Of a stretch of DNA of 64,000 bases, positions 22,575 through 23,704 are shown piece after piece. Under the pieces are notes generated by a model. The model did no database searches. It had not been told where the DNA came from and saw only the letters and a program-made list of their open reading frames with translations. The stretch is from NCBI GenBank assembly GCA_015057525.1, contig SVEE01000002.1, forward strand, positions 4,767 to 68,766. The letters are read 5' to 3'. The translations under genes were made by a program, and so were the position numbers. The first letter of the stretch is position 1, and each line of letters opens with the position of its first letter. Source of the stretch: Lachnospiraceae bacterium (lineage in GTDB: Bacteria; Bacillota; Clostridia; Lachnospirales; Lachnospiraceae).

Positions 22575-23000
22575 ATGGAACTTAATTCTAATCAGATTCA
22601 GGAAATATTGCCTCACAGATATCCTTTTGCACTTGTAGATAAGATAACTGATTATGAGCCAGGCAAGTTTGCTAAGGGTATTAAGTGTGTAACTGTTAAC
22701 GAGATGCATTTTTGTGGACATTTTCCACAGCAGCATGTTATGCCAGGTGTACTTATAATAGAAGCTCTTGCTCAGGTTGGTGCAATTGCAATCCTTTCAG
22801 AGGAAGAGAATAAAGGTAAAATTGCATTCTTTGGTGGAATCAAGAATGCTCGTTTTAAGAAGCAGGTTGTTCCTGGAGATGTCCTTGAGCTTGAGTGCGA
22901 GCTTACTGAGAGAAAAGGTCCTGTTGGATACGGTAAGGCAACTGCTAAAGTAGATGGTAAGGTAGCTGTTGTAGCGGAGCTTACATTTGCAGTAAATTAA
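22575..23000 (+). CDS. fabZ: 3-hydroxyacyl-ACP dehydratase
   Basis: [15 protein letters not shown]...[17 protein letters not shown]; ATG 22575 follows GGGAGG. Confidence 0.96.
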
Positions 23001-23028: not shown

Positions 23029-23237
23029 GAAAAACGCAGTATGGCTATTGATATAAAACATATATTATGCAAACAACTGCAACGCGCTGACAAACTAACC
23101 AGTAACTACGACTAAGACTCTCAGGAATGCCTTCGAGCCTAAGTCTTCATAACTATTGGATTTTGTCAGTCGCTAAAACCGCAGTTCAAATATTTGCATA
23201 CTATATGTTTTATGCCAATAATCATACTGCGTTTTTC
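23029..23237. repeat. 209-nt long imperfect palindrome (candidate structured RNA or non-autonomous palindromic element)
   Basis: Perfect 15-bp ends GAAAAACGCAGTATG / CATACTGCGTTTTTC. Arms 23029-23073 and 23193-23237 pair at 40/45 positions. Inner stems AACTGC/GCAGTT, CTGACAAA/TTTGTCAG and AAGACT/AGTCTT. Confidence 0.85.
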
Positions 23238-23349
23238 TGTTTGATATAGGATATTTTTGTTTTAATTAATATTATATGTTTTCTAGGACATAGGGCTATT
23301 ATCCATAATAGAAATTATTGGCACATTATGTCAACTTAAATTGCTTTAC

Positions 23350-23596
23350 TGGGTCTATGGAAGAAAAGTTGTTATCAAGACCCACATGATGAGGTTTTAC
23401 TTGTATTATGTAAATTGAAGTATGCTTAAATGGGTCTCCATAAAAAAAGTTGTATTCTGTACCCAGATGTTTTTTGAAGTTTGGGTCTAGATAGCAGCTT
23501 TTTTTATAGAGACCCATAGTTGTTTTCTTACATGAGTTTGAGCGGTATATTTGCCAGAAAATGGGTCTGTGGAATAAGATTGTTTCCATAGACCCA
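23350..23596. repeat. Array of four 35-bp palindromic-ended units, TGGGTCT-N21-AGACCCA
   Basis: Units at 23350-23384, 23431-23465 (ends GTACCCA), 23482-23516 and 23562-23596; gaps of 46, 16 and 45 nt. Confidence 0.88.
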
Positions 23597-23622
23597 TTTG
23601 ATTTATGTGCAGAAATTCACTC

Positions 23623-23650
23623 TTGAAATAATACTTCTAGTTGTTATAAT
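23623..23650 (+). promoter_or_regulatory. sigma-A promoter (extended -10) for the HAD-DUF6472-aroK genes
   Basis: TTGAAA-16-TATAAT with TGt immediately upstream of the -10. Confidence 0.65.
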
Positions 23651-23704
23651 ATTAGAGATATTTACAACATTATATAGATTTATAATATGTTCAAAGGTGA
23701 TTTT

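Follow-up and report, generated by a model that had tools for sequence, protein, structure and literature searches.

A four-unit array between fabZ and a HAD-family hydrolase gene belongs to a dispersed intergenic repeat family of Lachnospiraceae with a putative PD-(D/E)xK partner protein

Main

An array of four 35-bp units with inverted heptamer ends, located between fabZ and a HAD-family hydrolase gene of a Lachnospiraceae bacterium, represents a single module of a repeat family that is dispersed through the intergenic DNA of many Lachnospiraceae. It is part of a stretch of 64,000 nucleotides (GenBank assembly GCA_015057525.1, contig SVEE01000002.1, positions 4,767 to 68,766), which we call the window and number from its first letter. 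The heptamers and the lengths of the segments between them are under strong purifying selection, and in other genomes the gene of a ~250-aa protein with a predicted nuclease fold adjoins such arrays. We consider it probable that the units are intergenic repeats resembling repetitive extragenic palindromic (REP) sequences and bacterial interspersed mosaic elements (BIMEs), that they are duplex binding sites for a predicted dimeric or oligomeric protein, and that a PD-(D/E)xK family is their partner. Lachnospiraceae are dominant gut and rumen bacteria, and current understanding of dispersed repeats that have an enzyme of their own comes mainly from REP sequences and the REP-associated tyrosine transposases (RAYTs) of Proteobacteria. 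Literature searches on REP and intergenic repeats in Lachnospiraceae, on RAYTs and REP doublets (REPINs) in Firmicutes, on the heptamers and on PDC-S68 returned no description of the family, which is apparently undescribed.

The array had been picked out by an earlier reading of the letters alone (the sequence-only reading), which offered four candidate explanations: a REP/BIME-like repeat family, a miniature inverted-repeat transposable element (MITE), a recombination or protein-binding array, and a multi-hairpin small RNA. Its description of the array stands. The starts of the four units, the gaps between them and the GTACCCA end of unit 2 are all as it gave them (Table 1), and the symmetries between units that it reported hold on comparison with a repeat finder, with complementarities of 81% over 36 nt between units 2 and 3, 80% between units 1 and 3 and 74% between units 1 and 4. 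At up to two mismatches, TGGGTCT-N21-AGACCCA has only these four sites in the 64-kb window, compared with an expectation of 0.06 sites from dinucleotide shuffling, and none of 100 shuffles gave four. Outside the array the heptamers are rare in the window (TGGGTCT once, AGACCCA twice). An identical module is present on three contigs from other samples.

Results

Distribution of the family

We scanned one genome per GTDB species with the two-unit pattern TGGGTCT-N21-AGACCCA-N16..46-TGGGTCT, for which we estimate about 8 chance matches under equal base frequencies. The scan returned 49 loci with about 200 units, and 46 of the 49 loci fall in 21 metagenome-assembled genomes (MAGs) with Lachnospiraceae-type names (Butyrivibrio, Faecalimonas, Acetatifactor, Wujia, Oliverpabstia, Lachnobacterium, Tyzzerella, Eubacterium sp. 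and Lachnospiraceae), often with several loci per genome. The remaining three are single units in Proteobacteria, as chance would yield. A pattern search across this genome and related Lachnospiraceae had been proposed with the sequence-only reading, and the scan shows that the pattern is not confined to the window. All Lachnospiraceae arrays are intergenic and adjoin genes in every orientation, convergent pairs included. Among 83 flanking genes compared with Pfam there was no recurrent transposase, recombinase, cas family or functional theme, and the genes are diverse housekeeping genes. Viral contigs gave no match to the two-unit pattern, and a scan of a metagenome-contig collection that does not include the source contig gave 22 loci, mostly with odd gaps, that are probably due to chance. 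The candidate of a REP/BIME-like family is thereby strengthened, given the 46 intergenic loci, the clustering into arrays and the fixed linkers.

The longest arrays are in one Butyrivibrio MAG, with up to 16 tandem units at a period of 51 and two unit types that alternate at a period of 102. Two of the long arrays in Butyrivibrio directly follow a tRNA-gene terminator and a third lies about 450 nt after the RNase P RNA gene (L052 4051-4727; L005 6176-7098; L013 1-1320), and in each case array and RNA gene share a strand. A second repeat (L013 ~490-670, L049 1-50) borders two Butyrivibrio arrays and includes GGGACCCACCGAAGGTGGGAGGAGTCCTGATGCCACT, with a CCCACC-GAAG-GTGGG hairpin. In L013, short tandem copies of GGCATGAGAAYAG come before this second repeat, which may be a 'leader' of the arrays or an element in its own right.

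Module architecture and selection on spacing

The four-unit module recurs at ten other loci, which belong to Faecalimonas, Acetatifactor, Wujia and unnamed Lachnospiraceae, and its start-to-start distances there are 80-82, 51-52 and 80-81. All ten have the right-right-left-left polarity that the sequence-only reading had proposed for the window. Conservation in the module alignment is limited to the heptamers, a TAT extension and a few adjacent T/A positions. Units 1 and 2 have the form TGGGTCTAT...AGACCCA, with the extended arm on the left, and units 3 and 4 read TGGGTCT...ATAGACCCA, with the extended arm on the right. The unit consensus is a pair of inverted heptamers, TGGGYMT and AKRCCCA, held 21 bp apart, one arm being extended by TAT. 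The cores are AT-rich with an AnTn pattern and are free in sequence. Across the family, unit-to-unit spacings fall into the classes 51 (n = 21), 70-71 (n = 12), 80-82 (n = 34) and 91-93 (n = 3), which differ by steps of approximately one or two helical turns.

Two Faecalimonas species (L008 and L025) share two orthologous modules beside metY, which is 89.5% identical between them and 71% identical at third codon positions. In these modules the heptamers are 89-91% identical, compared with 37-49% for the cores and 45-54% for the linkers, and 11 of 112 positions have changed in the heptamers versus 205 of 384 in the cores and linkers (Fisher p = 5e-18). None of the seven segment lengths (21/46/21/16/21/46/21) differs by more than 1 nt. 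By their coordinates, the stretches of intergenic DNA just outside the Faecalimonas modules vary in length (80 vs 132 nt, 76 vs 36 nt). Between the window and its 96%-HAD relative (L059), 1 of 56 heptamer positions changed versus 24 of 191 others (p = 0.02). Heptamers and segment lengths are thus under strong purifying selection, and the selection on spacing that had been suspected from the fixed unit length is borne out by orthologous modules whose segment lengths are all preserved although the similarity of their cores and linkers has fallen almost to random levels.

A functionless array, whether a decayed local duplication or a chance arrangement, might be argued from the mirror similarity of units 2 and 3 (81%), which could be recent copies, and from a unit number that varies between relatives. 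We rule this out as barely conceivable: only 0.06 sites are expected in the window, 46 loci are found in 21 genomes, the module architecture is identical in several genera, and both heptamers and segment lengths are conserved.

A protein gene linked to the arrays

Four open reading frames (ORFs) that have arrays nearby on both sides and no Pfam match are mutually homologous at 37-80% identity, and tblastn found two further homologues adjoining arrays (L045 and L068), one in the Butyrivibrio MAG with the long arrays. The gene of this ~250-aa protein adjoins arrays in all ten loci examined, including four of four that were reached from the protein side. In these four protein-first loci, 7-N21/22-7 units lie 20-340 nt downstream of the gene, one locus using TGGGTCT and three using other arm variants (Table 1), and the same unit detector found nothing in 32 kb of array-free loci. 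In four MAGs, gene-linked and unlinked arrays use the same heptamer. The protein has no model in Pfam or NCBIfam, its family comprises 3004 clusters at 90% identity and 5817 at 50% identity, and GenBank labels its members 'ATPase' or 'hypothetical'. Most likely it is this PD-(D/E)xK family that would bind the units, a putative assignment.

Two of the gene-linked loci have further features. In L087 (1520-1675 and 3348-3573) there are hybrid units whose outer ('strong') arms are TGGGCAT(AT), the CA variant, and whose inner arms are of the TC type (AGACCCA), which hints at two half-site types within one module. In L018 (5059-5426 and 6304-6716), from a Lachnobacterium MAG, the same ordered set of units stands in direct repeat on either side of the nuclease-like gene; either a block of gene plus array was duplicated or the gene was inserted into an array.

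An AlphaFold2 model of the protein (predicted local distance difference test score 88) shows, from the N-terminus on, a helix, a sheet of three strands and a long helix (51-87), followed by a C-terminal alpha/beta domain. The best Foldseek matches are Bax1, the R2 restriction-like endonuclease domain (RLE), Can2/Cdn1, AF1548, BamHI, OkrAI, Hjc and FAN1, all of the restriction-endonuclease-like fold. At the sequence level two families match the C-terminal domain, namely HEAT_CxxC_PD-DEXK and, with its C-terminus, the PADLOC candidate PDC-S68 (E down to 1e-31). The N-terminus weakly matches a phage 'transcriptional regulator' family, and a search of the PDB with the protein profile gave no significant match. 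Among the invariant residues are RSKSE (146-150), RYE (165-167), PDFT (179-182) and YWEHFG (193-198), with E150, D180 and E195. The C-terminal domain is thus predicted to be a PD-(D/E)xK nuclease fold, with putative catalysis, in which K148 may, judging from these residues, replace the usual Lys of (D/E)xK.

Protein-binding sites or single-strand hairpins

The arms could pair within a single strand as well as be read by a protein on duplex DNA, and we find the latter better supported. The cores are not palindromic, with 2.7 of 9 positions beyond the arms able to pair, which is the chance level, and pairing is confined to the 7-bp arms. Of the 151 arm pairs that deviate from the consensus, 143 are changed on one side and 8 on both, and the one-sided mismatches comprise G-T and A-C equally often (32 each), with no strand-biased wobble. 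The RNAalifold covariation term is 0.04. Rfam gave nothing relevant in the window region at a lax threshold or in 12 array loci at the gathering threshold. In the RNA data the window region was matched in only one run, of unspecified type, and a Butyrivibrio array gave only word matches at the tRNA level. A stem of 7 bp around a 21-nt loop has little stability, and linker lengths that advance in helical turns are sensible only for duplex DNA, which favours a protein-binding array. That candidate is further supported by the AT-rich cores and the existence of a gene for a cognate protein, and the multi-hairpin small RNA is not upheld by the Rfam, covariation and mismatch results.

More broadly, the units might act as single-strand hairpins either in RNA, as a REP-like 3' stabiliser, a terminator helper or a multi-hairpin small RNA, or in single-stranded DNA for a hairpin-binding enzyme, in which case a REPIN-like fold of units 2 and 3 would be possible. 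We judge this improbable. A 7-bp stem can form in every unit, arrays are often situated after terminators, tRNA genes or the RNase P RNA gene, 6 of the 8 two-sided arm changes are complementary, and two or three lineages have a few changes in the arms of unit 2 that are mirrored in unit 3. Such complementary or mirrored changes are explained equally well by a symmetric dimer site or by gene conversion as by pairing. Against hairpins count the lack of any extension of the stem into the core, the excess of one-sided mismatches, the near-zero covariation and the linker steps, for which there is no RNA rationale. The complementarity of the cores of units 2 and 3 is not general either, at 16 of 21 positions in the window but 9 of 21 in L025a. 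Finally, the ORFs of ~350 kb of array loci contain no Y1/HUH transposase homologue and no HUH-plus-Y motif, as searched with an IS200 TnpA probe of approximate sequence.

Gain, loss and inversion of units

As had been proposed with the sequence-only reading, we aligned the fabZ-HAD interval in relatives and looked for an empty site. The fabZ-HAD synteny is kept in all of these relatives, which we label by their HAD identity to the window. The 73% relative has a 140-nt spacer and no units; the 82% relative (L054) has a lone TGGGTCT that is fused to the -35 box, overlapping the TCT that precedes it; the 88% relative (L053) has one unit, orthologous to unit 4; and the 96% relative (L059) has four units, as does the window. 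The indel between the one-unit and four-unit states (L053 vs window) is exactly 212 bp, corresponding to units 1-3 with their linkers, and its breakpoints are at heptamers. At the other end of the module (window 23540-23620 vs L059 435-505), the core of unit 4 is identical at only 14 of 21 positions and the stretch after it is 24 vs 13 nt long, compared with ~90% identity in the rest of the module, which suggests, from the alignment, that this end was replaced or converted.

Modules also flank a segment whose orientation differs between species. A gene pair consisting of a ClpP-like (tepA-type) gene and the nuclease-like gene lies between inverted four-unit modules in three genomes (L008 2073-4235, L025 4558-6658 and L087 1481-3542), the modules around it being 94% identical over 174 nt in L087 and 78% identical over 223 nt in L025. 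With respect to metY and ftsK, the pair has the opposite orientation in L087 to that in L008 and L025, which suggests inversion or gene conversion between the flanking modules. Because the flanking modules are inverted and the orientation of the segment differs between species, we take the modules to participate in recombination. In the window region, contigs of four metagenome runs show no strand-switch joints, although contigs drop rare variants.

One reading of these dynamics is that gene and flanking arrays form an active mobile element with the PD-(D/E)xK protein as its transposase, and that solo modules are MITE-like derivatives that still transpose. The TG...CA ends of units with inverted heptamers, the arrays on both sides of the gene in L009 and L018 (in L018 the same array in direct repeat), the differing unit content of close relatives and the very large protein family (5817 clusters at 50% identity) are all compatible with it. 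Yet the longest repeats shared by the two flanks are on average 1.5 nt at 11 modules vs 1.4 nt for mismatched flank pairs, so there is no sign of a target-site duplication above this null. Copies in the same genome differ from one another, modules at orthologous sites have outlasted the divergence of species, the tepA-metY-ftsK surroundings of the gene are maintained in three genomes, and viral contigs hold no copies. The indel in the window lineage removes or adds three units with heptamer breakpoints and not a whole element. We therefore think an active element doubtful, and the MITE candidate of the sequence-only reading fails on the same three points of target-site duplication, uniformity and indel content.

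Genomic setting of the window array

The array occupies a 686-nt spacer between fabZ, which ends at 23000 and closes a fabG-fabF-fabZ run, and the HAD-family hydrolase gene, which starts at 23687 and is followed by genes for DUF6472, shikimate kinase, germination protease, spoIIP and lepA. Genes on either side run in the same direction, which rules out a replication terminus or fork trap. The operators of CtsR, VirR/LytTR, ComK, BirA and FapR/FabT are, to our knowledge, all unlike the array. An 87-aa ORF on the minus strand (23326-23589) spans the whole module, but it is made of the repeat units and uncalled on every source contig, and is probably spurious.

The HAD gene has a strong sigma-70-type promoter at 23623-23650, 27 nt after unit 4, of the form TTGAAA-16-TGTTATAAT (TTGAAA-16-TGnTATAAT). 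The promoter is kept in all syntenic relatives (L053, L054, L055 and L059), and units are gained or lost immediately upstream of its -35 box. Just after fabZ, at 23029-23237 (core 23070-23203), there is a rod-like hairpin of -82.7 kcal/mol (z = -10.9) without an Rfam match. At the same site L053 has only a short terminator hairpin, AAAAACGCAGTAT-loop-TATACTGCGTTTTT, and the palindromic insert of L054 is a different one, rich in AT. This identifies the window hairpin as the fabZ terminator with a nested palindromic insertion; an identity as 6S RNA was rejected on this ground. The inner ~134 nt of the hairpin have 50-100x the depth of their flanks in four gut metagenome runs and are joined to many different flanks, so that they constitute a high-copy element, which may be a palindromic element that targets terminator loops. 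Protein bound at the array might affect the fabZ terminator or the HAD promoter.

Table 1 Features of the array in the window and arm sequences at the four protein-first loci
Feature	Position	Strand	Description
Four-unit module, 247 bp	23350..23596		Eight heptamers in alternating orientation; dyad symmetry about ~23473
Unit 1	23350..23384	+	TGGGTCTAT-N19-AGACCCA; extended ('strong') arm left; 0 mismatches; polarity from module alignment
Long linker 1, 46 nt	23385..23430		Length kept across genera, sequence not
Unit 2	23431..23465	+	TGGGTCTCC-N19-GTACCCA; right arm degenerate, 2 mismatches; identical in the 96%-HAD relative L059
Short central linker, 16 nt	23466..23481		Dyad centre of the module
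Unit 3	23482..23516	-	TGGGTCT-N19-AGAGACCCA; mirror image of unit 2
Long linker 3, 45 nt	23517..23561		From module alignment
Unit 4	23562..23596	-	TGGGTCT-N19-ATAGACCCA; strong arm right; orthologue of the lone unit retained in L053
Protein-first locus L084			Arms TGGGTAT/ATACCCA
Protein-first locus L085, Roseburia sp.			Arms TGGGCAT/ATGCCCA
Protein-first locus L087			TGGGTCT units and hybrid TGGGCAT/AGACCCA units
Protein-first locus L088			Eight- or nine-unit TGGGCAG-N22-ATGCCCA array

Discussion

The explanation that we favour has three steps. A dimeric or oligomeric protein, encoded elsewhere in the genome, would recognise pairs of heptamers on duplex DNA. By analogy with REP/BIME and RAYT systems, nicking, cutting or recombination at heptamer pairs could then bring about the gain, loss, homogenisation and inversion of units that are seen between relatives. 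The protein, or selection at the level of the host, would keep heptamers and spacing intact. A more specific version, to which we give about even chances, is a REP/REPIN-RAYT-like partnership of independent origin, in which a large unannotated family of dimeric nucleases propagates, homogenises and inverts the arrays, each lineage co-evolves with its own heptamer variant, and the window module is one such site, positioned between the fabZ terminator and the HAD promoter.

Several observations weigh against this explanation. Six of the ten gene-linked loci were found via the repeats, which leaves only four as an unbiased test of linkage. The Foldseek E-values are weak (6e-3 to 0.3, with probabilities up to 0.99), and the residue at the canonical Lys of (D/E)xK is Phe197. 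TGGGTCT arrays accompany proteins of only 31-80% mutual identity and hybrid units occur; with the same arrays beside divergent proteins, arm variants do not track protein divergence simply. Within the 64-kb window there is no homologue of the nuclease-like protein, in agreement with the sequence-only reading, which had seen no partner gene there, although the partner family exists in related genomes. The mirrored changes of units 2 and 3 also fit single-strand pairing or gene conversion.

That the window has a module but no nuclease gene would be expected if the units were sites for an architectural or regulatory protein of the host (for example a nucleoid-associated protein, a topoisomerase or a global regulator) that is unrelated to the PD-(D/E)xK gene, and if the nuclease-like gene merely lay in array-rich regions or were itself a regulated target. 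The conservation of heptamers and spacing while cores drift freely, the helical-turn steps and the position of arrays between terminators and promoters of housekeeping operons suit such a protein, and the BIMEs of E. coli are bound by integration host factor (IHF) and gyrase. We nevertheless hold this to be unlikely, if somewhat less so than an active mobile element. The gene is linked to arrays in 10 of 10 loci, including 4 of 4 from the protein side, three of the four protein-first loci have their own arm variants (TGGGTAT, TGGGCAT and TGGGCAG), and arrays beside genes in every orientation, with up to 16 units, are unlike a promoter operator. The partnership of repeats and nuclease-like protein remains the reading that we prefer.

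The closest known counterparts are the REP/BIME sequences, REPINs and RAYTs of Proteobacteria. As in those systems, short units with inverted ends occur in many intergenic copies per genome and form mosaics of alternating orientation with fixed-length linkers, they persist vertically at orthologous sites, and a dedicated protein gene adjoins copies of the repeat, with different genes next to different repeat variants. The differences are substantial. The partner has a predicted PD-(D/E)xK fold in place of a Y1/HUH transposase. The unit, instead of being an imperfect palindrome throughout, conserves only arms of 7-9 bp around a free 21-bp core, and it lacks a conserved GTAG-type tetranucleotide. 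Recognition of duplex DNA is favoured over a single-stranded DNA hairpin, and the hosts form a family of Firmicutes. What defines REP/BIME is thus found in part: many intergenic copies (one module in the 64 kb of the window) and alternating clusters with set linkers (the module in 11 loci) are present, but a full stem-loop and a Y1/HUH RAYT are not. As the full palindrome and the Y1 transposase are absent and the tests for a MITE, a clustered regularly interspaced short palindromic repeat (CRISPR) array and a small RNA failed, we place the array in no named family.

Other small repeats share some of these features. Pneumococcal BOX, RUP and SPRITE, Neisseria Correia elements and MITEs are likewise small, non-coding, intergenic and modular, with terminal inverted repeats and a module number that varies between strains. 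MITEs differ in their near-uniform copies and target-site duplications, compared with free cores and no duplication seen here, and, unlike in this whole group, no insertion sequence (IS)-type transposase shares the ends of our units, which are only 35 bp long. The res sites of serine resolvases and invertible segments are also arrays of dimer sites with inverted short arms at set spacings, and the inverted modules around the tepA-nuclease segment recall them. However, no serine or tyrosine recombinase is linked to the arrays, there are dozens of dispersed copies per genome, and only 16 bp separate the inverted units at the centre of the window module. CRISPR arrays are similarly regular, with palindromic elements, variable segments of fixed length and an adjacent gene of a nuclease family. 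In contrast to CRISPR, the conserved parts here are 7-9 bp, the cores are related, AT-rich and of low complexity, alternating in Butyrivibrio, there are dozens of arrays per genome, the flanking genes include no cas genes, and no Rfam or CRISPR-type repeat was matched. On the protein side, TnsA of Tn7, Rpn/YhgA and the R2 restriction-like endonuclease share the catalytic fold predicted for the partner and are all tied to DNA rearrangement, but the partner has no Pfam or NCBIfam sequence match to them, its N-terminal domain differs and there is no TnsB-like partner. We know of no link between TnsA, Rpn/YhgA or the R2 endonuclease and a dispersed repeat family.

If our reading is correct, it would for the first time place in a functional context a protein family with thousands of members, for which Pfam and NCBIfam have no model and GenBank uses the wrong label 'ATPase', and would provide a sequence-specific nuclease with a known, unusually long and split recognition site. 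It would also explain recurrent intergenic length variation, inversions and assembly breaks in these genomes, and offer strain-level markers. More generally, it would mean that another catalytic fold can serve as the basis of a partnership between repeat and enzyme of the REP/RAYT type.

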